This document shows positions 17,528-44,855 of a DNA stretch of 64,000 bases, piece by piece. The notes beneath the pieces are model-generated. The model was not told the origin of the DNA. It ran no database searches and was given only the letters and a program-made list of their open reading frames with translations. Source of the stretch: a virus. The position numbers and the translations under genes were made by a program. Positions within the stretch are counted from its first letter, which is position 1, and every line of letters starts with the position of its first letter. The DNA lies in the IMG/VR virus record IMGVR_UViG_3300042691_041392; one strand, 5' to 3'.

Positions 17528-18169
17528 ATGATTATATACAAAATATCTAATATAATAAATGATAAGATCTATATAGGTCAGACAATAGAGACATTGGATA
17601 AGAGGTGGAGAAGACACACATGGAAGTCAACTATAAAAAGAAATGTAATGGCTATAACCAATGCGATTATAAAATATGGTGTGGAAAATTTCATGATAGA
17701 GGAAATTGATAGTGCTGAAAATATAGAGGAGTTAAATATGAAAGAGGAATATTACATAAAATATTATGATTGTATATCACCAAAGGGTTATAATATAAAA
17801 AATGGTGGTGATAATAAAAAATTATCAGAGGAGACTAAACTAAAAATTAGCATTTCGAATAAAGGTAAAAAAAGAACAAAGGAAACTATAAAAAAACTAT
17901 CAGATTCACACAAAGGATGGGTTCCATCAGAGGAAACAAAACAAAAATGGAGAGATGCGTTTGGTGGTAAAAAACCATCTGACAACACTATAAATGCAGC
18001 TATAGAAGCAAATCAGAAGGAATACACACTTTTAAATCCGGATGGTGAACTTATAACATTTATAAATATGGCAAAGTTTTGTAAGGAAAACAATTTATCA
18101 AATTCTAAATTGTGCTTAGTTGCTAGTGGTAAGATAAAATCGCATAAAGGTTGGACAAAACCTATTTAA
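17528..18169 (+). mobile_element. Free-standing GIY-YIG homing endonuclease with NUMOD3 repeats
   Basis: IIYKI...IYIGQT, E in NMKEEYYI, GYN, and SEETK repeats; inserted antisense between NADAR and the methylase. Confidence 0.85.
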
Positions 18170-18668
18170 AAAATTGTTCTAAACCAGTTTTCTTTTCAAT
18201 TCCTCTTAGTTCATCACGAACTTTCATAAGTATTTTACCAAGATGATTTTTACCTTTATTTCCACACTTTTCACAATAACATGACCCATAAAAATTGTCG
18301 TGCCAATAATTACCTTCGATTAGCTGAAGATCTTCTGTGTTTAATAGAAGTTCTGATAAATTATCATTTTTGAATTTTTCTCTAACACCCCAATTCATGA
18401 ACTCTAATTTCTTTTCATCCCAATCACTACGAACTTTTAACTTTTGACCAAGTTTTTTAACGTGACCTGGACTTGGTGTTTTCGCAATCATTTCTTTAAA
18501 GTCAGCAGGTGTGTAATAAATACCATTTATCATTTGATCATTTTTACATTTTTGTGCTACATAGAAATGTTCTACACTTGGATATTTAATTCCTTGATGT
18601 TCTATTTCAACTGGATAGAAATTGGATAGAAAATTCCATCTACCATCAAATCTATTTATATAACTCAT
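18162..18668 (-). CDS. NADAR family (YbiA-like) hydrolase
   Basis: FLSNFYP...YPSVEHFY.AQK...KF...LIEGNYWHDNFYG...GKNHLGKILMKVR. Confidence 0.9.
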   Translation of the reverse strand: MSYINRFDGRWNFLSNFYPVEIEHQGIKYPSVEHFYVAQKCKNDQMINGIYYTPADFKEMIAKTPSPGHVKKLGQKLKVRSDWDEKKLEFMNWGVREKFKNDNLSELLLNTEDLQLIEGNYWHDNFYGSCYCEKCGNKGKNHLGKILMKVRDELRGIEKKTGLEQFFK

Positions 18669-18681
18669 AGTATTTTATATG

Positions 18682-18709
18682 AAAAAACCCCACAATGTTG
18701 TGGGGTTTT
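18682..18709. terminator. Intrinsic terminator downstream of the tmRNA
   Basis: AAAACCCCACAA-tg-TTGTGGGGTTTT. Confidence 0.8.
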
Positions 18710-18715
18710 AATTTG

Positions 18716-19080
18716 TGGAGAAGACCCGGTACCGCCCCGGGTGTACTACTCAGATGACAACAATTAATCTTCACAGGTTTAGTAGAGTTTTTCTAAACTT
18801 ACAAAATAGTTAGTTGAACTGACCCATCACTCTAACAATTCTGGTTTCACATTTGGTCTGTGTGATACAGTTGGAGAATTTTTTCGATTAGTTTCTCTTA
18901 AACTAACTCTGGAGTGTTAACTCCAATTGCTTTTAGGGTCGCTACTAAATCTTCACGAGATCCTACTTCATTTGTGTTGCCATTTACGACAGTTATCGAT
19001 TAATTTATAAATCGGACATTCGACAACCCGATACCTGCATAATCACCACCAATCTGCTAGGCGAATCTAATGACTTCCCC
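18716..19080 (-). ncRNA. ssrA: tmRNA (one-piece); tag reading frame 18981-18898 encodes GNTNEVGSREDLVATLKAIGVNTPELV*
   Basis: 365 nt; 5' GGGGAAG pairs with 3' CUUCUCC-A including G3:U; GAUUCG D-loop-like segment; P2 helices CAGAU/AUCUG and GCAGGU/ACCUGU; T-arm ACCCGG-GGCGGUA-CCGGGU; UAAAU-GGC resume context; CCA not encoded. Confidence 0.88.
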
Positions 19081-19102: not shown

Positions 19103-19134
19103 CAAATGTATATATAATATTTTAAATATACAAA
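19103..19134 (-). promoter_or_regulatory. Bacteroidota-type housekeeping sigma promoter for the tmRNA
   Basis: TTTG(19134-19131)-N20-TACATTTG(19110-19103). Confidence 0.65.
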
Positions 19135-19189: not shown

Positions 19190-21034
19190 TTAGAATACAT
19201 CAGTATCATCTGGCATATCACCATCATCCATTGAGTAGAAGTTGAATATAAATAGTGGTTCTACTTTTCTTGTTTCCCATATATCACATTCCAAATCAAA
19301 ATCAATTAAGACATCTTTATCAATTTTCTTTATAACTTCATAGATATGAATAACTTCATCAAGTTTATAAAAATAATTAACCATTCCGTATGTTGTTGGT
19401 ATAATTTGAACTTTTAAATTCATACCAGTATTTGTTACTTCACAGTTTTTGATACCAGCTTGAGTAATCATTTTTCTCAAAAGATATTTAAGATTATCAA
19501 TATCATCAGTGTTATTATCGTCATCATCTTCATATTGATCATAATCCTCTTCCTCTTCATCATCCCATCTATCCCACTCTTCATTTAAGAATTGGTCATA
19601 TTTCTTCAATTTATTTGACTCATAAGGATCATTATAAGTTCTATTAGTCTTAGATGAACTATCTTTACCCAATATAATTTGTAAATATGTCTCATCAAAT
19701 AAACAAGAAGTTGGTCTTTTGTGAAGTTTCATAACATTTCTAAGTTCTTTTAAACTTTCTAAAATGGTATCAATATCTTCATTTTCTAAATCAAAGTTTA
19801 CATAAACATTACCGTGATCAGTTGAAATAGTTTTATCTAAATTAACTCCTTTTAAAGCATCGACAAATTCTTTATTTGATGTTTTAACATTAGATATCAT
19901 CTGTTTAATAGCCGCTCTATCTTGAATAGTTCTCACAACTGGTAAGTTAGCCCAATCTACATTAACAGAAGCTTTACATAAATCTATTAAGTAATCCATA
20001 TTTTGAATTTCTTTACCAGTATGCTCATTTAAATAACCAACTGAAACGTTTGTACATTCAGGAATATCATCTATAAATGAAGCTGAATCGGTGAATACAC
20101 CAGTAGGGTCAATTTTCAAATTCAATCCACTTGCGTTATATTGTTCACAAAGTGCGTTACCAAATTCATCAGAACAACATCTACCACCAGCTTGTGCGGT
20201 AATAACAGAAATTGTTTTTCTTCTATCAAAAGAAACACATCTTTTAATATTTTTCAAATAACTAACTTCATCATATTTATCAGCTAAAGCTCTAGAACCA
20301 ATACCACCTCTTTCTTCTCCGATAAAGAAGTAATAAAGACCTGGTACATTTTTAGCCATCATATATAACATAACAGTTGTTCCTGCTTTATCATCAGCAC
20401 CTAATACTGTTGTTCCATCAGTTACGATGTGTTCTTGTTCATCAATTTGAACAGAAAAAAGTCTTGTAACAGCTTGTTTTCTATCGGCTGTATCTAAGTG
20501 ACAAGTAAACATAGTTGTTGGATTGTCACCAATTATTTTATAATAGTTACCAACAATATCTTTACTTAATTCAGGTAGGAATTGAAGAACTTCATCTTCA
20601 TGTCCATGTGGATAAGTTTTAGTAACTAATGAAAGGAATGTAGATCTTGGATCTAATGGATTATATTCAAATGTAGGAACCTTAATTGGAATTTTTTCAT
20701 CTTCAACAGATTCTCCTTTTTTAACTTTATTATACAAAGTAACAAAGTTTTGAATATCTTCTGATGTAAAATAATTATGAAAATAATATCTAATAAAGTT
20801 ACCACATTTCATATCAACTGTTCCTTTATCTTTTGTTGTTACTTTAAAATGAAAATCTTTATCAGAAACATCAACATTTGTTATTTTCAATCCATTGAAA
20901 TATTCTGTATCTTCATCATCTAAACATAATATTTCAAAAGCAATATATTCATTCATATCATTAAGCTTTTCTAATACATCTATTAAAGCTTTTGATAATT
21001 TTATTTTTGGTAAGTTTGTTGGTTCTCCCGCCAT
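19190..21034 (-). CDS. M28/M20-type zinc metallopeptidase with N- and C-terminal extensions
   Basis: CHLDT, LGADDKAG, GEERG, FDR, FTDS and NEHT metal-binding motifs. Confidence 0.8.
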   Translation of the reverse strand: MAGEPTNLPKIKLSKALIDVLEKLNDMNEYIAFEILCLDDEDTEYFNGLKITNVDVSDKDFHFKVTTKDKGTVDMKCGNFIRYYFHNYFTSEDIQNFVTLYNKVKKGESVEDEKIPIKVPTFEYNPLDPRSTFLSLVTKTYPHGHEDEVLQFLPELSKDIVGNYYKIIGDNPTTMFTCHLDTADRKQAVTRLFSVQIDEQEHIVTDGTTVLGADDKAGTTVMLYMMAKNVPGLYYFFIGEERGGIGSRALADKYDEVSYLKNIKRCVSFDRRKTISVITAQAGGRCCSDEFGNALCEQYNASGLNLKIDPTGVFTDSASFIDDIPECTNVSVGYLNEHTGKEIQNMDYLIDLCKASVNVDWANLPVVRTIQDRAAIKQMISNVKTSNKEFVDALKGVNLDKTISTDHGNVYVNFDLENEDIDTILESLKELRNVMKLHKRPTSCLFDETYLQIILGKDSSSKTNRTYNDPYESNKLKKYDQFLNEEWDRWDDEEEEDYDQYEDDDDNNTDDIDNLKYLLRKMITQAGIKNCEVTNTGMNLKVQIIPTTYGMVNYFYKLDEVIHIYEVIKKIDKDVLIDFDLECDIWETRKVEPLFIFNFYSMDDGDMPDDTDVF

Positions 21035-21071: not shown

Positions 21072-21686
21072 TTAATGAGTTATTTCAACTCTACCTTTAG
21101 AATATCTAACATACCTACTATTTGTATGATCTACCTGCACTTGACCAGTTACAGATCCTTGTTTTTTACTAACATAATCTTTTGTACAAACAACTATATC
21201 ACAATTTGAAAGGTCATTTAAAGAATATTTCTTTTTTTCATTACTTTCCATCTTTTCTAAATGACTGTTTTTTTTAACTATGTCAGCAGCTTGTAGAATA
21301 ACATTCTCTGGTATAATATCATCTTTTAATGTTTTAATTATAAGATGAGTTCCAATAATTCTATCACCAGTAACTTCTTCACCATTAGTTTTATAATAGT
21401 GATCAGGATTTTTTATACTTGTAGCGTGCATCCAAATATCATTTTTACTAGGCTCTGAACCACCGATTGGGTTAGCAAATTTACCGGAATACATAGTGGT
21501 TAGAAAATCATTACTTTTAGCATTTCTACCCCAATAGACATCATATACATTTTCTGGATTATTCGAATCTGATATTTTTTTATGTTTTATATCATAACCA
21601 TCCAATTTGAATTGTTCTAAATCACTTTTTGGAGTGCTTGTAGATGTCTCATATACTTTAAACGTTTTAAATCTTTTAATTCTCAT
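21072..21686 (-). CDS. Stand-alone NFACT-R (DUF814, RqcH/Rqc2 RNA-binding) domain protein
   Basis: GRNAKSNDFLT...DIWMHA...GTHLII...ILQAADIV..NS...YVSK..G...GQV matches the NFACT-R pattern GRN..QND.LT...D.W.H...GSHV....AA.LA..YS..YV.K. Confidence 0.7.
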   Translation of the reverse strand: MRIKRFKTFKVYETSTSTPKSDLEQFKLDGYDIKHKKISDSNNPENVYDVYWGRNAKSNDFLTTMYSGKFANPIGGSEPSKNDIWMHATSIKNPDHYYKTNGEEVTGDRIIGTHLIIKTLKDDIIPENVILQAADIVKKNSHLEKMESNEKKKYSLNDLSNCDIVVCTKDYVSKKQGSVTGQVQVDHTNSRYVRYSKGRVEITH

Positions 21687-23603: not shown

Positions 23604-25712
23604 TTAGATGTTTTTGAATCTTTCCATAATAGCATTTACATCATTGTCAGATAATTTATCTTCTTGAATTAAAGCATCATGTGAAACTAATTTTTTAGTT
23701 ACAGATTCATTTGTTTTAAGATTTCTAGTTGCCCAGAAATGCTCAATTTGTGACTCAGTTGTTAACATTTCAGCTGGGTATAATCTAGCTTGTGATAACA
23801 TAGATTTTTTAGCTGATTCATTTAACTGATTCCAGATAGCCTTAGTGTTTTCAGGCATCATTCTGATAACTCTTTCTTCTAGAGTTTCATTTTTAGTTGA
23901 TAATGCTTCAGAAATTAATGAAAGAACTTCTTTTTGTGTGAAGTAACTTCTTTCGTTTATGTGAAGTTTAACAGTTTCTTGTTCTTCATTAGTTAAAGCA
24001 TAGTAACTATCAACTTGTGATTTAGATAAGAATTTTAAGAAATTCAAATCTGATGTCTCGGAAACTTTACGTTTTTTAGCCTCTTCGATTAATTTATTAA
24101 TAGATTCAGATAATTCAGAATCATTGTCACCAGAAACTTCATAGTCCATTGGTCCACATTCTTCATCATCTTCTTCATCTTCTTCGTGTGCATAAGCCTC
24201 TTCAGAACCTACGTGAGAAATACCATTGTATTCTTCTTCATCTTCGTTTTCTTCTTCAGAACCCCAAGCTTCTTCTTCATCCTCATCTTCTAAAGAAGAA
24301 AAACCAGCAGCGTTTAATGTTGGGAAAGCTTCTTCAGCAGATTCGAATAATTTACCACCGTTTAATTTCTCAGCAATCATCCCAGCGTAAGAGATTGATT
24401 TGTCTAAGTTCTCAGCGATATATTCAGAGTAAGCGATATTATCATCTAAGTGTTCAGCGATATATTCTGAATAAGCGATATTACCTTCTACGTGCTCAGC
24501 TAAATACTCAGAGTAAGCAATTGAATTATCAACGTGCTCAGCGATATATTCAGAGTAAGCGATGTTTTTATCTAAGTTTTCAGCGATGTATTCAGAGTAA
24601 GCGATATTCTTATCTAAATTCTCAGCGATATACTCAGAGTAAGCGATGTTTTTATCTAAGTTTTCAGCGATATACTCAGAATAAGAGATATTCTTATCTA
24701 AGTTTTCAGCGATATACTCAGAGTAAGCGATGTTTTTATCTAAGTTTTCAGCAACGTATTCAGAATAAGCGATATTCTTATCTAAATTCTCAGCTAAATA
24801 CTCAGAGTAATTAACAGCTTTTTCTAGATTTTCAGCTAAATAGTCATTGTGTTTAATAAGTTTGTCAGTTGTTTCTTTTAACGACTTGTTCTCATTAACC
24901 ATAATTTGAACTTTTTCAGCTAAATAATCTAAATACTTAACAACTTGAGAATTAGTAGTGTTTAATTCATCATAATACTCAAGTAGTTGTTCTAATTTCT
25001 TAGGGCTTAAGTTACCTTTAGAAATAGCATTCTTAACTTCTTTCTTTGTAGAAGCTAATTCATTAACTAAATACTTAGAGTAATCAGTTAATTGTTGCTT
25101 AGTAACAAACTCATTTTTGTTCATGTTAAATAGATCATTTATTTTTGACTCATCGGACATTTCATATATCCTAAAGTTGGATTGTGGATTATCATAACCT
25201 AGTGATTCATTAAGTGTTTTAACACTCATTTTAGCTGAAGCAAAACCTGGATCAGCAACTATATCATAAGTAAATAATTTCTTTAACGAAACTGATCCGT
25301 CAGACTCAGTAATACCTGCGGCTCTAGAAGAAACAAAAACAGGACATCCGTCATCGACCAATGCCTTAGCTTCTTTACCCCAATAAGTACTTAATAATCT
25401 GATTTCACCAGTGACATTATTAGCCTCTTTAACATAGTTAGCTTTAGTAATTATGTGTGAAGCCCTTGAAAGAGATGTGTCAAATACGTCTGGATGGTCA
25501 AATTCACCATACACAGCACCTAACCCATTCATCCTTTCGTTAAGTTCTTGTAGAGCTGGTAAGAATTTTTCAGCTGTATAAATTCTTTCATTACGGTTTT
25601 TAACACCGAATTCTGTAAATATACCACCTAATACATACTTATCTTTACTCACCGAATTATTCTCAACAATAAGAGAATTAGTTGAATTTTCTACAATTAA
25701 GACTGGTTTCAT
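23604..25712 (-). CDS. gp21: Prohead protease (gp21-like) fused to a coiled-coil scaffold
   Basis: KNRNERIY, GEFDHP, VSSRAAG and YDIVADPGF in the first ~170 aa, then 14-aa repeats and an acidic region. Confidence 0.85.
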   Translation of the reverse strand: MKPVLIVENSTNSLIVENNSVSKDKYVLGGIFTEFGVKNRNERIYTAEKFLPALQELNERMNGLGAVYGEFDHPDVFDTSLSRASHIITKANYVKEANNVTGEIRLLSTYWGKEAKALVDDGCPVFVSSRAAGITESDGSVSLKKLFTYDIVADPGFASAKMSVKTLNESLGYDNPQSNFRIYEMSDESKINDLFNMNKNEFVTKQQLTDYSKYLVNELASTKKEVKNAISKGNLSPKKLEQLLEYYDELNTTNSQVVKYLDYLAEKVQIMVNENKSLKETTDKLIKHNDYLAENLEKAVNYSEYLAENLDKNIAYSEYVAENLDKNIAYSEYIAENLDKNISYSEYIAENLDKNIAYSEYIAENLDKNIAYSEYIAENLDKNIAYSEYIAEHVDNSIAYSEYLAEHVEGNIAYSEYIAEHLDDNIAYSEYIAENLDKSISYAGMIAEKLNGGKLFESAEEAFPTLNAAGFSSLEDEDEEEAWGSEEENEDEEEYNGISHVGSEEAYAHEEDEEDDEECGPMDYEVSGDNDSELSESINKLIEEAKKRKVSETSDLNFLKFLSKSQVDSYYALTNEEQETVKLHINERSYFTQKEVLSLISEALSTKNETLEERVIRMMPENTKAIWNQLNESAKKSMLSQARLYPAEMLTTESQIEHFWATRNLKTNESVTKKLVSHDALIQEDKLSDNDVNAIMERFKNI
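24360..24850 (-). repeat. 42-bp coding tandem repeat (YSEYIAENLDKNIA x10 plus degenerate flanks)
   Basis: Read directly from the translation. Confidence 0.9.
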
Positions 25713-25889: not shown

Positions 25890-26288
25890 ATGATTCTAAC
25901 TAGAGAAATAGATGTAAAGATTAGTGAGTCCAATTTTCATTACTATGAAGACTTAGGATATGATATAGGATTGGGTGAGGTTATTACCATACCAGTAGAA
26001 TTACTTTCGAAAGGTTCCCATCATAAAATAAAGTGCCAATGTGATAGTTGTGGTATAGAAAAACAGGTTATATATAAAAACTATCTTAAATACGACAATA
26101 AGAATTGGGGAGACTATTTTTGTAGAAAATGTTCAGAAATAAAAAGAAAAGAAACACTAAGAAAAAACTTTGGTGTTGATTATCCTATACAAAATAAAAA
26201 AGTATTATCTAAAATGAAAAATACCTTAGTTGAAAAATACGGTGTAGATAATATATCAAAAAAGAATAAAATAAATAAAGATGGCTAA
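25890..26288 (+). CDS. Zn-finger protein resembling homing-endonuclease DNA-binding modules, no nuclease domain
   Basis: CDSC...CRKC and FGVDYP/YGVDNI repeats; start moved to ATG 25890. Confidence 0.55.
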   Translation: MILTREIDVKISESNFHYYEDLGYDIGLGEVITIPVELLSKGSHHKIKCQCDSCGIEKQVIYKNYLKYDNKNWGDYFCRKCSEIKRKETLRKNFGVDYPIQNKKVLSKMKNTLVEKYGVDNISKKNKINKDG

Positions 26289-28185
26289 ATACAATGAAGG
26301 AGATATTCTTGAATCTCAAATAGAATTCTCCGTTAGCGGAAATGCAACTGTCAAAGTTGATGGAAAAGAATTTTTCGTACATAAAAAGAGAACGTTAAAT
26401 TCACTACACTTAGATAAAGTAAGATTTGTTCTCTTTAAAGGAGAAAAAAAATTAGAAGCAAAAGTAATAGAGGTAGTTGAAAGATTTAAATTAGAATTTG
26501 TAGGAACTACTCAAGTTAAAAAAGATCACACATTTGTTATACCAGATAACTCAAAAATACACGTTGACTTTTATATAAAAGGTAAACACTCAGCAGAAGA
26601 TAATCAAAAAGTACTTGTTAAATTTGATAGTTGGGAAAACGGTCAAAAATCACCAAATGCTAAAATTGTTAAAATTTTAGGAACTGTTGGTGAGAATGAA
26701 ACCGAAATGAACGCTATTATGTATGAATATAACTTACCAGTGGATTTCCCACAAGAAGTTTTAAATGAATCAGAGTTAATATCAGAAGTTATTACTGAGA
26801 AAGAGATATCTAAAAGAAGAGATTTGAGAAATATAACTACAATCGGTATCGATCCGTTTGATTCAAAAGATGCTGATGATACAATCGGATTAGAATTTAA
26901 AGATGGTAAAAGATATGTTTCTATAAATATCGCAGATGTTACACACTATATAAAACCAGGAAGTGCCTTAGATGAAGAAGCTTATAAAAGATCATCTTCT
27001 GTTTATTTAGTTGATAGATGTGTGCCAATGATACCAAAAAGATTGAGTAATGGTATATGTTCTTTAAAATCAGGTAGTGATAAACTATGTTACTCTGTTA
27101 TAGTTGAATTAGATACAAATGGTAGAATTGAAAACACTTGGTTTGGTAGAACTATTGTAAACGTAAATAAAGACTATTCTTATGAAATGGCTCAAGAAGT
27201 TATCGACAGAGGAACAGCATCAGAAGAAAATAAAGATTGTGATGAGGTTATTTTAGAATTACACAGATTAGCTTTAAAAATGAGAAGAAGAAGAATGTTA
27301 GGAGGTTCCATGGAAATTGGTGGTGTTGAAGTTAAATTCAAATTAGCTGATGATAATAAAAAACCAATTGGACTTTATTTAAAAGAACAAAAAGAAGCTA
27401 ATCACTTAATAGAAGAATATATGTTATTAGCGAATAGAGAAGTTGCTAAGTTTATTAAGTCTAGAGGGTTACCTTGTGTTAATAGAATTCACGAAGAACC
27501 GGATGAAACTAAATTAGAACATATTAAAACATTCATATCAACTTTAGGATATGAAGTAAATTACGGTGATACACCTGAGAAGACTAAATTAGTTATAAAT
27601 GAACTAATGAAAAGTTGCAAAGGAACTAGTGAGGAAAACATCATTACAACTTTAATAGTTAGAGCTCAGCAAAAGGCTAAATATACAACTAGAAACATTG
27701 GTCATTATGGTTTGGGATTTGAACACTATTCACACTTCACAAGTCCGATTAGAAGATATAGTGATATGTTGACACATAGATTATTATCAATGGCATTGAA
27801 AAGTGAGGGATATAGTAAAGATGTTAAACCAAACGAATTAGAAAAACAATGTGAGTGGATATCTAAACAAGAAGTAGTATCAGCAAAAGCTCAAAGAGAT
27901 TCTATTAAGTATAAACAAGCTGAATACTTAGGAGACAGAATTGGTCAAGTTTTTGATGGAATTGTTTCAGGTGTATTAGATAGAGGAATCTATGTAGAAT
28001 TGTTTGAAAGTAAATGTGAAGGTTTAATAAAACTAAGTAGTTTAGAAGGAAAATGGATGGCTTATCCAGATAATTACTATGCTGTTAGTGATTTAGGTGA
28101 TAAAGTTAGATTAGGTGATCCAATAAAGGTTGTTGTTAAGTCAGTTGATTTAGAAAAGAAACAAATCGATTTTTTAAAATTTTAA
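26281..28185 (+). CDS. rnr: Ribonuclease R (RNB family)
   Basis: IDPFDSKDADD, IADVTHY, LIEEYMLLAN, HYGLGF..YSHFTSPIRRYSD and a C-terminal S1 domain. Confidence 0.92.
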   Translation: MAKYNEGDILESQIEFSVSGNATVKVDGKEFFVHKKRTLNSLHLDKVRFVLFKGEKKLEAKVIEVVERFKLEFVGTTQVKKDHTFVIPDNSKIHVDFYIKGKHSAEDNQKVLVKFDSWENGQKSPNAKIVKILGTVGENETEMNAIMYEYNLPVDFPQEVLNESELISEVITEKEISKRRDLRNITTIGIDPFDSKDADDTIGLEFKDGKRYVSINIADVTHYIKPGSALDEEAYKRSSSVYLVDRCVPMIPKRLSNGICSLKSGSDKLCYSVIVELDTNGRIENTWFGRTIVNVNKDYSYEMAQEVIDRGTASEENKDCDEVILELHRLALKMRRRRMLGGSMEIGGVEVKFKLADDNKKPIGLYLKEQKEANHLIEEYMLLANREVAKFIKSRGLPCVNRIHEEPDETKLEHIKTFISTLGYEVNYGDTPEKTKLVINELMKSCKGTSEENIITTLIVRAQQKAKYTTRNIGHYGLGFEHYSHFTSPIRRYSDMLTHRLLSMALKSEGYSKDVKPNELEKQCEWISKQEVVSAKAQRDSIKYKQAEYLGDRIGQVFDGIVSGVLDRGIYVELFESKCEGLIKLSSLEGKWMAYPDNYYAVSDLGDKVRLGDPIKVVVKSVDLEKKQIDFLKF

Positions 28186-42412: not shown

Positions 42413-42691
42413 ATGGCAAAAACTAAAGAACAAGTAGAGTCAAAAGTAGAAGAGATTTTATCCAAACCATATCGTTTAGATCTTCACAATGACGATTTTA
42501 ATTCTTTTGATTGGGTAATCACTTGCCTAATGAAAGTATGTAAACATGAATATGAACAAGCTAACCAATGTGCTTTTATAGTTCATCATAATGGTGTTTG
42601 TGATGTTAAATATGGAGACTATGAGACTATCTCTGATATGAAAGATAAACTACAAAATGCTGGTTTATCAGTAACAATGGAAGCTAATTAA
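42413..42691 (+). CDS. clpS: Clp protease adaptor ClpS
   Basis: LHNDDFNSFDWVI..L...QA.QCA.IVH..G...VK.G. Confidence 0.88.
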   Translation: MAKTKEQVESKVEEILSKPYRLDLHNDDFNSFDWVITCLMKVCKHEYEQANQCAFIVHHNGVCDVKYGDYETISDMKDKLQNAGLSVTMEAN

Positions 42692-42692
42692 T

Positions 42693-42724
42693 AAAAAAGT
42701 CACTCAAATTGAGTGACTTTTTTT
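42693..42724. terminator. Bidirectional terminator
   Basis: AAAAAGTCACTCAA-a-TTGAGTGACTTTTT. Confidence 0.8.
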
Positions 42725-44855
42725 AGTTTCTACCAAACCAATTACTACCTTGTGAATAGTTCGATCTTCTATTTATAAACTGTCTTCTAGCTTTAAGAAC
42801 TTGACCATAATCAAGTCCTTCCATATAATCTCCTTCATTCATACATTTTTCAATGTAAGTCATGAATTGTTTATTGGTTTTATTACCCCACTCTTCAACC
42901 ATCTCTTTGAATTCATTTTTATTAAAGATAGAACTCATGTTAACCAAAGTCATAACGGTATCATCATGACCAACATCAGCCGCATATCTAACATTACCAG
43001 AAGTTGTTGTATGTTTAACAAAAGTTGTTATCTCTCTAATATTATCTTCATTGGTAATAACCAATCCTTTATTCTGCATTAATTCTTGATAATCTTTAAC
43101 CATCATATTTTTATTATCACCAACTTTTAATCCAACTTTCTCTTCTGTTGAATCAACTCTATGTTTATATCTAACAAAAATTGAAGATCCATATTGATTA
43201 TTACCATCAAAAACATGTGGCATCTCCGCCAATAATGTATTACCATAGTTATTTAGCTCCAATACTATTTTAACATTCTCCGGATTAAAATATTCAAAAG
43301 CAATGAGATATAAAAGTTCAGCCAATTGCTTAACTGAAATGAAATTATTTCTATAAATACCTATTTGTTCTAATCGGAAAAAATCAACAATTGATTTATA
43401 CTTAAATTTTTGTTCTTCTATTAAATCAGTTGATTTCTCACCAACTTTAAATATGTTAATAACAGAATAGTCTTGTCCTAAACCTTCTGATATATCTACC
43501 GATAGTACAATTTTATATTCCTTTCTTCGTATTGGTATAAAAGTATCATCATCTTCTATCCATTTTAAATCAGTATAACTAAATCTCAATCTTCTAAGTT
43601 CATCTAATTCAGTAAAAGCGAAATGTTTTTTACCTCTTAATAAATCTTCTATGATAGCCTCATTTAAAAGTGATTTACTACCATTAATAAATCTTAGTCC
43701 ATACTCTTGGTTGAAAGCATCTTCACCACCAATATCCTTAACAGCTTCATCTTTCCAAGTTGTTATTTCAGAAATTGCTAAAATTGAGGTATCCAATCCA
43801 TTTTTATCAACAAAACTCAATGATTTAACCATTTCATCAGTACACTTATCATTATTAAATATGTGTATCACATCCTTTTGAAGATCAATATTAAAGTTCA
43901 TTTCAACCTTTGTTAAATCACCCCAAGTTTCTTTACACAAATTATGTATATCATCAGCAGTAACACCATACTCATACATCTTATGTGGATTTAATCGTAT
44001 ATAAGTAACAAAACGACCAGGTACTTGATACCAATAAACTCTAAATGGTTTATAGTTATTTTTCTGTGGATCACCATCTGGTCTTTCAGCATCAGTTAAT
44101 AACTTATGGAATAAATTCATACCATTAGGAGTTGATGTGATGATAATCTTTGAGTTTTGCACGGCTGATACAGTTGGAAAAGCCGCTGTATAGTAAGGTT
44201 CAATGATATTTGATGGGATATGAGCGAACTCATCTAAGTAAAGTAAGTCAATGGTAAAACCAATTGCTGGTGTCTTTGTTCTTGCCGATGTTTTAATTCT
44301 ACAACCATTCTCAAATGTTAATGATTTTTGGTTCCAAGTTTTAACCCCAGGCTTTAGATAGAATGGTAATAGAGTATAAATAGATTTTACTTTATCAACA
44401 ATCTCAACCGCAGTATCACCTTTGTTCGCTACAATCATTACGTTTTTATCATTATTAAAGAGAATAGTGTGTAAAATAAAAATAGCTGATGATACAGTTT
44501 TACCAACCTGACGAGAAGCCATTAGAATATTGAATCTATTACTAACAAAATTATCCAATATCTCTTCCTGATAATCTCTAAGTTTTATAGAACCAATACT
44601 ACCATCTTCTCTTTTGGTTTTACAATATTGCTCTGTAAAGTAATGTATATCTAAAGCACATCTAATATATTCTTGTTGTTCCTCAGGAGTCATTCTAAAA
44701 GAAACACCTGATCGTTTAATACCAACTTCACCTTTTAGCCAAGGGTTTTGATACCTTTTAAGGACTATACCGTCGTTTATTTTATCAGTAGCATCATCAA
44801 CAAGTCTAGTGGTAAAGACCATCTGTCTTTCTTCTTCTACGTGTTTTTTTGCCAT
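42723..44855 (-). CDS. gp17: Terminase large subunit (T4 gp17-like)
   Basis: LRDYQ, SRQVGKT, LDEFAH, TSTPNG, VDISEGLGQDYS, ELNN and HDDTVM. Confidence 0.93.
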   Translation of the reverse strand: MAKKHVEEERQMVFTTRLVDDATDKINDGIVLKRYQNPWLKGEVGIKRSGVSFRMTPEEQQEYIRCALDIHYFTEQYCKTKREDGSIGSIKLRDYQEEILDNFVSNRFNILMASRQVGKTVSSAIFILHTILFNNDKNVMIVANKGDTAVEIVDKVKSIYTLLPFYLKPGVKTWNQKSLTFENGCRIKTSARTKTPAIGFTIDLLYLDEFAHIPSNIIEPYYTAAFPTVSAVQNSKIIITSTPNGMNLFHKLLTDAERPDGDPQKNNYKPFRVYWYQVPGRFVTYIRLNPHKMYEYGVTADDIHNLCKETWGDLTKVEMNFNIDLQKDVIHIFNNDKCTDEMVKSLSFVDKNGLDTSILAISEITTWKDEAVKDIGGEDAFNQEYGLRFINGSKSLLNEAIIEDLLRGKKHFAFTELDELRRLRFSYTDLKWIEDDDTFIPIRRKEYKIVLSVDISEGLGQDYSVINIFKVGEKSTDLIEEQKFKYKSIVDFFRLEQIGIYRNNFISVKQLAELLYLIAFEYFNPENVKIVLELNNYGNTLLAEMPHVFDGNNQYGSSIFVRYKHRVDSTEEKVGLKVGDNKNMMVKDYQELMQNKGLVITNEDNIREITTFVKHTTTSGNVRYAADVGHDDTVMTLVNMSSIFNKNEFKEMVEEWGNKTNKQFMTYIEKCMNEGDYMEGLDYGQVLKARRQFINRRSNYSQGSNWFGRN

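Follow-up and report, generated by a model that had tools for sequence, protein, structure and literature searches.

Can phage DNA in which the usual detectors recognise no transfer-messenger RNA (tmRNA) nonetheless encode a working one, and what would then become of the proteins that it tags, if the tag is long and does not end in Ala-Ala? The question is raised by the IMG/VR virus record IMGVR_UViG_3300042691_041392, a stretch of 64,000 nucleotides (nt) analysed here as a whole and called the window, which is phage DNA of 29% G+C encoding a T4-type major capsid protein, a portal protein and a large terminase. An earlier note, made from this DNA, had placed in it a phage tmRNA with alanine identity elements, a promoter and terminator of its own and an unusual tag. 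From comparison with related sequences we conclude that the locus very probably encodes a functional one-piece tmRNA of the phage, identity and ribosome-rescue mechanism being taken together. The gene occupies positions 18716..19080 of the minus strand (365 nt), exactly as first delimited, with 19080 as G1 and 18716 as the discriminator A; coordinates below are those of the window and refer to the minus strand unless the plus strand is named. At its ends, GGGGAAG pairs with CUUCUCC over seven positions, including a G3:U wobble, and an unpaired A follows. That discriminator A is the 3′ end of the mature tmRNA as encoded, since the CCA is not part of the gene and the genome reads on as CAA.

A family of related RNAs in giant phages

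By distant BLAST the same RNA turned up in two huge phages that are uncultured, LR745206.1 (634,780 bp) and LR756502.1 (642,428 bp), both of which come from a study that relied on ARAGORN for its tmRNA assignments and predicted the hosts of genomes larger than 634 kb to be Bacteroidetes (Al-Shayeb et al., 2020; PMC7162821). In pattern scans of IMG/VR, the matches listed for a 15-mer were mostly due to chance, and a gapped pattern returned 53 loci, seven of which were chance matches inside protein genes and were removed. The homologue set used throughout thus comprises 46 IMG/VR contigs, the window and the two GenBank genomes, which together provide 30 distinct full-length sequences. A pattern scan of bacterial genomes gave no true homologue among the matches listed (at least 120 loci), and BLAST of the phage tmRNA against 401 sampled Bacteroidota genomes returned one marginal match of 44 nt only, a result that does not prove absence. 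Full-text literature searches likewise brought up no described phage tmRNA family with the T loop or the tag presented below, although a word search of this kind cannot prove absence. The phage is probably a giant phage of the Mahaphage type, with a member of the Bacteroidota as its probable host.

A covarying tmRNA fold

The fold was assessed in two ways. In a set of 21 sequences RNAalifold returned the acceptor and T stems, a small hairpin that does not vary and an extended helix connecting the two ends with the interior. A full fold model in window coordinates was then counted on an alignment of 28 sequences; two members, L011 and L050, are not part of it, since MAFFT had put their 5′ ends in the wrong place. 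Standard pairs occupy 83.7% of the cells of this alignment, compared with 76.7% in shuffled alignments, and both-side changes are seen at 41 pairs, compared with 26. The covariation score is 0.265, reached in none of 500 shuffles (0.139 shuffled), and it fell to 0.107 or less in controls in which the 3′ partners were slid by 1–3 columns.

The same count describes the individual helices. The acceptor stem, formed by the 5′ strand GGGGAAG (19074..19080), which takes part in G3:U, and the 3′ strand CUUCUCC (18717..18723), next to the discriminator A, is paired in 100% of cells, with G3:U present in 28 of 28 sequences, pairs 5 and 6 covarying and the discriminator A invariant; the alanine identity elements claimed for this RNA are thus borne out, together with the tmRNA call to which they belong. 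There is no anticodon arm, and the tRNA-like domain is linked to the rest of the molecule by helix P2 (5′ strand 19033..19060, 3′ strand 18746..18778), which has 24 pairs, both-side changes at seven of them, and pairing of 97.5% and 100% in its component helices 2 and 3. Pseudoknot 1 (PK1; 18992..19032) consists of an invariant stem 1, AUCGG/CCGAU, paired in 100% of cells, and a stem 2, GUUGUCG/CGAUAAC, paired in 79% with both-side changes at five of its seven pairs, and it ends 10 nt before the resume codon. Pseudoknot PK2 (18847..18870) pairs in 82% (stem 1, CUGU/ACAG) and 94% (stem 2, UCAC/GUGA) of cells, with compensatory changes in each stem. The standard position of PK3 is taken by a variable hairpin (18803..18842) whose helix 10 is paired in 63% of cells and whose inner pairs covary, a pseudoknot not being established there. 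In PK4 (18779..18802), stem 1, GUAAG/CU(C)UAC, is paired in 86% of cells with both-side changes at four of five pairs, and the putative stem 2, UUA/UAA, has no compensatory change in any sequence. Poor column-wise counts for the tag hairpin and for helix 5 are due to stem sequences that are specific to lineages.

A long tag frame without a start codon

Downstream of PK1 lies the tag frame (18898..18981), in which a GGC resume codon (18981-18979) opens a run of 27 sense codons closed by a TAA stop (18900-18898), such that the peptide following the charged alanine would be GNTNEVGSREDLVATLKAIGVNTPELV. The frame is open in all 30 homologues, with 27, 28 or 29 codons and invariably a TAA stop, and the two other frames carry between one and eight stops. 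Its length differs among members by whole codons only, and indels of 1–2 nt occur just upstream of it. Going upstream from the resume codon as far as the first in-frame stop, 19 of the 30 homologues have no ATG, GTG or TTG, which removes ordinary initiation as an option for the frame. The stop codon, in turn, sits in the loop of a helix 5 hairpin (UUAGUU/AACUAA; 18888..18906), and sequence-by-sequence inspection placed it inside a local hairpin loop in 29 of 30 homologues, stem sequences varying by lineage; this is the classical helix-5 arrangement. The frame originally proposed is therefore upheld by its openness throughout the family, and it is also the one chosen by ARAGORN at a 60% threshold (-ps60), which reports the tmRNA gene with the same tag and frame among three other, low-threshold noise calls and to which we attach little weight. 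The resume codon, earlier deduced from its context, is backed by homology to host tmRNAs and by the 10-nt spacing from PK1.

Conserved pairing of the 5′ and 3′ ends, covarying helices, a pseudoknot placed before a start-less frame and a stop codon within helix 5 together amount to the architecture of a tmRNA. On this comparative evidence the identity of the RNA as a tmRNA is well supported, with little room left for doubt.

The claim of a long tag lacking an Ala-Ala end likewise stands: phage tags have about three times the length of host tags, and none of the 30 relatives ends in AA. Valine is the last residue in 20 of them and alanine in 10, and the C-terminus is always hydrophobic and aliphatic. 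Over its first 15 residues the tag of most members looks like a classical one with an LVAA end; an extension of 12–14 residues follows in which the EDL motif is repeated, such that most tags contain two like motifs, a central EDLVAA and a terminal EDLATV or similar. This layout suggests that an ancestral tag may have been extended or duplicated beyond its stop codon to give the long one.

An altered tRNA-like elbow

The earlier description of a complete tRNA-like domain holds in part. The acceptor stem, G3:U and a T arm are present; the domain departs from the standard one in that the T arm (18724..18742) has a stem of six pairs, the outermost an invariant A:U, and a 7-nt loop, GGCGGUA (18736-18730), and a canonical loop of the UUCRANY type on a 5-pair stem is not present. 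In the family the T stem is paired in 95.7% of cells, with compensatory change at four of its six pairs, and the T loop reads GGCRGUR. The D loop has AG where the tmRNAs of Bacteroidota hosts have GG. It is by these features of the T arm and D loop that the phage RNA differs most clearly from tmRNAs recognised by the detectors.

The unusual loop has a natural counterpart. Five alphaproteobacterial genomes gave matches to the alpha_tmRNA model (RF01849) at 207–303 bits, and in all four of the alphaproteobacterial tmRNAs that ARAGORN parsed the T loop, carried on a 5-pair stem, is GGCGGUA, identical to that of the window. Its occurrence in undoubted tmRNAs marks the phage T loop as a natural variant and not a defect, which may have arisen by convergence or have a mosaic origin. 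The elbow as a whole (GGCRGUR T loop, AG in the D loop, extra pair in the T stem) may tie the tmRNA to an SmpB protein of the phage's own.

Relationship to known tmRNAs

For comparison, Bacteroidota host tmRNAs, of which ARAGORN recognised four and which include those of Tenacibaculum, Maribacter, Dokdonia and Paludibacteraceae (L272-L275), were aligned by eye with those of the phages. The phage RNA shares with this SsrA type (RF00023) the order of elements, a similar length (365 nt, as against 389–398 in the hosts), G3:U, a glycine resume codon, similar P2 and PK1 sequences and a CCA that is not encoded. The resume codon is preceded by UUUAAAC|GGC in the hosts and by GUAAAU|GGC or UUUAAAC|GGN in the phages, with UAAAY|GGN as the common form, and it falls at nt 91–98 in the hosts and at nt 91–101 when hosts and phages are taken together. 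The shared resume context, P2 and PK1 fix the resume codon by homology and point to the Bacteroidota both as the source and as the host phylum. There are also differences: host tags have nine residues and end in LAA (for example GENNYALAA), whereas those of the phages have 27–29 and end in V or A; and host T arms combine five pairs with a loop of the UUCGAxU type, whereas the phage T arm combines six with GGCRGUR.

The two-piece tmRNA of alphaproteobacteria (RF01849) resembles that of the phage in its T loop, GGCGGUA, and in a D-loop region with a similar UAGGAUCGAC-like sequence, but it is circularly permuted, comes in two pieces, has a 5-pair T stem and specifies tags of 11–13 residues ending in AA, whereas the phage gene is unpermuted. 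For the tag itself the nearest precedent is bacterial. In Mycoplasma pneumoniae a tmRNA tag of 27 residues is an efficient degron for Lon (Gur and Sauer, 2008; Burgos et al., 2021, PMC8403727), and it matches the phage tag in its similar length, hydrophobic end and acidic-hydrophobic interior, thus offering a precedent for a long tag that shifts recognition to another protease. It differs in being encoded by a bacterial gene, in organisms without ClpXP, and in having an aromatic-Ala end, and the phage relatives are without Lon; the likeness seen is one of length and character.

Among phages, tmRNAs are on record for Bacillus phage G and mycobacteriophages of the Bxz1 group (Hudson et al., 2014; PMC4131195), and huge phages with genes for both tmRNA and SmpB have been reported (Al-Shayeb et al., 2020). 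The tag of phage G also ends in VA and not AA, and that of the present family is about twice as long. The earlier phage tmRNAs were brought to light by ARAGORN, Rfam or similar programs, whereas the present family is missed by ARAGORN in its default mode.

Observations that weigh against a functional tmRNA

Several observations count against the reading of this locus as a functional tmRNA and deserve to be set out together. The first is the silence of the detectors: run over the whole window, ARAGORN lists neither a tRNA nor a tmRNA by default, and it finds nothing at thresholds of 95% and 80%, and no Rfam model reports the tmRNA gene at its gathering score in a scan of the window. The 13-pair acceptor/T stack would be unusual for a ligand of EF-Tu, and the additional A:U pair, being invariant, lies beyond the reach of a covariation test. 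Purifying selection on the tag peptide is only moderate (pooled pN/pS, the ratio of nonsynonymous to synonymous polymorphism, 0.55–0.67). SmpB was not found within the 64-kb window, and its pairing with the tmRNA accordingly rests on the relatives. Orthologues of Lon and ClpX were not found in the five large relatives searched, and no tag-reading protease was identified. Lastly, expression, charging and tagging are predictions from the comparison of sequences.

The detector results carry less weight than they seem to. In E-value mode, the one-piece model RF00023 yields a 7-bit fragment at the T arm of the phage RNA, as against a cut-off of 47 and scores of 72–165 bits for the Bacteroidota hosts; the other matches are terminator-like and due to chance. 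ARAGORN also misses the phage tmRNA in LR745206.1 and LR756502.1, and a scan with RF00023 of records that include three of the SmpB-bearing genomes gave nothing above the gathering score, the matches obtained being tRNA genes. Folding of the single phage sequence is uninformative (z-score -0.84). Taken by itself, the silence of Rfam and ARAGORN would make the finding fail, and the tmRNA call therefore rests on comparison with relatives. The earlier note had named the absence of a covariance-model hit as grounds for refutation, and no such hit was obtained; we judge this test unsound here, because it is in the T arm and D loop that the phage RNA differs most clearly from host tmRNAs and yet covariation across 28 sequences shows the fold.

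Partner proteins and candidate proteases

In each of five large relatives searched (385–642 kb) there is one copy of SmpB, scoring 167–181 bits, and that of LR745206.1 can be aligned over its full length with SmpB proteins of known structure, its GKK..DKR tail intact. No EF-Tu orthologue was found in the five relatives, and alanyl-tRNA synthetase (AlaRS) is represented there by a single AlaRS-like fragment in one genome. Lacking orthologues of both, the phages would have to rely on host factors for charging and delivery, with which the retained alanine identity elements fit.

Parts of Clp proteases are also present. ClpP occurs in four of the five relatives, with one to three genes, and LR745206.1 encodes (L279:225-2330, about 423.2-425.3 kb) a ClpC-like double-AAA+ protein of 701 residues with the domains AAA, AAA_lid_9, UVR motif, AAA_2 and ClpB_D2-small; the ClpC-like ATPase and the ClpP of the relatives may constitute a phage-borne Clp protease. 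In the window itself a ClpS adaptor of 92 residues is encoded at 42413-42691 on the plus strand (Pfam ClpS, 64.6 bits). The 710-residue open reading frame (ORF) beside it (42723-44855) was considered as a Clp ATPase and rejected, being the T4-type large terminase.

Bacterial RNase R clears nonstop mRNA together with tmRNA-SmpB. An exoribonuclease of the RNase R/II type, with 634 residues, is encoded in the window at 26281-28185 on the plus strand (RNB, 330 bits, with CSD2 and S1), 7 kb from the tmRNA gene and on the other side of the head genes.

Proposed mechanism and fate of tagged products

In the mechanism that we propose, host RNase P and 3′ nucleases would trim the precursor and CCA would be added, after which host AlaRS would charge the phage tmRNA by way of G3:U and A73. 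Host EF-Tu and the phage's own SmpB would deliver it to ribosomes stalled on broken mRNA, where the nascent chain would be passed to the alanine and translation would resume at GGC. After 27 more residues UAA would end translation and the ribosome would be freed.

What the resulting tail of 28 residues does is a separate matter, on which our view is far less firm. The odds are about even that it is still a C-terminal degradation signal, read by an AAA+ protease through its aliphatic end and its acidic-hydrophobic core. The reading protease could be a host enzyme or could be assembled from the Clp parts encoded by relatives (ClpP, the ClpC-like ATPase), with ClpS in the window. A simple degron for host ClpXP is disfavoured by the lack of an Ala-Ala end in 30 of 30 tags, by relatives without an orthologue of Lon or ClpX, and by the acidic-hydrophobic core, whose conservation hints at another element of recognition. 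The earlier suggestion that the products escape ClpXP is, in its turn, weakened, because every phage tag keeps an aliphatic end and tags with LVA, AAV or ASV as their end are still broken down in Escherichia coli, at graded rates, such that departure from Ala-Ala does not imply loss of degradation. In view of the Lon-read tag of M. pneumoniae and of the ClpP and ClpC-like ATPase of the relatives, the routing of tagged products to another protease is plausible, and we place a degron read by an AAA+ protease other than ClpX slightly ahead of the sparing of products, a protective tail being less likely.

The chief competitor to a degron is a tmRNA that rescues ribosomes without marking their products for degradation, its tail instead sparing truncated proteins or marking or sorting them, and we consider this possible though doubtful. 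It draws on the complete want of Ala-Ala ends, on an ...EDLV... core whose conservation goes further than a purely C-terminal degron would require, on the departure of the phage from a host consensus in which all sampled tags end in LAA, and on the failure to find Lon and ClpX orthologues in the relatives. Yet the last residue is always V or A, in keeping with the general rule that proteolysis tags have a hydrophobic C-terminal end (Hudson et al., 2014), and to the degradation of LVA, AAV and ASV tags in E. coli may be added the 27-residue M. pneumoniae tag, an efficient Lon degron, and the ClpP, ClpC-like ATPase and ClpS carried by the lineage itself.

A bolder version of the degron reading, which we think unlikely, would join the altered elbow to the tail in a private, orthogonal circuit of trans-translation, with the elbow read preferentially by phage SmpB and the tail handing products to a phage Clp system (ClpC-like ATPase, ClpP, ClpS) and not to host ClpXP. 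Were it true, the phage would rescue ribosomes and clear products during infection out of reach of the host system and of defences by which the host cleaves mRNA or tRNA.

Further from the evidence stands the idea of a decoy, a tmRNA mimic that soaks up host SmpB, EF-Tu or stalled ribosomes and tags nothing productively, comparable to the RNA of mycobacteriophage DS6A that consists only of a tRNA-like domain (TLD). Such TLD-only phage tmRNA has been discussed as a possible titrator of SmpB (Hudson et al., 2014), and the altered elbow could in principle impair function, but a decoy would need neither the conserved frame, resume context and stop-in-loop nor length changes by whole codons, the phages encode an intact SmpB of their own, and the T loop is a natural variant in alphaproteobacterial tmRNAs; we regard this explanation as quite improbable. 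Least tenable, and in our estimate very improbable indeed, is that the locus encodes no tmRNA, being a conserved leader or small RNA with a structure of its own, in which a tRNA-like hairpin happens to enclose a small ORF, or a phage attachment-site (attP) remnant of a host tmRNA gene: in its favour are the failure of default ARAGORN and the Rfam models to recognise the gene and the fact that tmRNA genes are common phage integration sites, but it is met by ends that pair with G3:U in 28 of 28 sequences, covariation in every major tmRNA helix, the 19 of 30 homologues without a start codon, P2, PK1 and resume regions that are clearly homologous to those of host tmRNAs, and a full-length gene that has its own promoter and terminator and was not found in the 401 sampled Bacteroidota genomes.

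Promoter, terminator and neighbouring genes

The functional tmRNA gene favoured here has signals of its own, as had been claimed, and both are conserved in homologues. The promoter (19103..19134) consists of TTTG (19134-19131), a 20-nt spacer and TACATTTG (19110-19103), ending 22 nt before G1, a gap that presumably implies a short leader and its removal by RNase P. A TAnnTTTG box is present in 21 of the 30 homologues, with TTTG mostly 19–20 nt upstream. These boxes match what we take to be the Bacteroidota promoter consensus, and a promoter of that type agrees with the assignment of the host. On the other side, an intrinsic terminator (18682..18709) combines a CCCCACA/UGUGGGG stem with a tract of six U residues, its hairpin having a calculated energy of -16.1 kcal/mol; in 30 of 30 homologues a strong hairpin lies within about 45 nt past the 3′ end of the tmRNA, nearly always followed by a run of T.

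The surroundings of the gene are likewise stable. In nearly all related loci one strand carries, in order, the capsid gene, an NFACT-R-like gene (in brackets in our scheme of this order), an M28-like gene, the tmRNA gene, NADAR and Dam. The NADAR-domain protein of the window (18162-18668; 93.8 bits) starts about 14 nt beyond the U tract of that terminator. Two ORFs occupy the interval from the capsid gene to the tmRNA gene, one of 204 residues (21072-21686) with a sub-threshold NFACT-R match (20.4 bits, cut-off 29.8) and one of 614 residues (19190-21034) with a sub-threshold match to Peptidase_M28 (18.1 bits, cut-off 21.3); both labels are putative, and both ORFs stay beside the tmRNA in relatives. 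An ORF resembling GIY-YIG/NUMOD3 homing endonucleases (17528-18169, plus strand) stands between NADAR and Dam and occurs, among the related loci, in L051 only, so that it looks like a mobile insertion. Farther away, a 702-residue ORF (23604-25712) has a near-threshold match to Peptidase_S77, the T4 prohead core protease (25.6 bits, cut-off 27), which is confined to its first 140 residues and is followed by a long extra C-terminal part.

Significance

Surveys of translation genes in phages use ARAGORN or Rfam, and to both of these a whole clade is invisible, including two published genomes of 630–640 kb. It follows that phages which seem to possess SmpB and no tmRNA may have a tmRNA after all.

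The family also provides natural experiments on how a tmRNA is built and read. It sets a T loop of the alphaproteobacterial type in an unpermuted tmRNA, lengthens the acceptor/T stack by one pair relative to the host and alphaproteobacterial tmRNAs compared, and extends the tag to three times the host length, with the Ala-Ala end abandoned and an aliphatic terminus kept. Should the tag be read by a phage protease, or the elbow be specific for phage SmpB, the system would represent a viral rewiring of bacterial protein quality control and could supply orthogonal tagging parts for Bacteroidota; should neither be true, it would stand as a well-supported, ordinary extension of the known phage tmRNAs.

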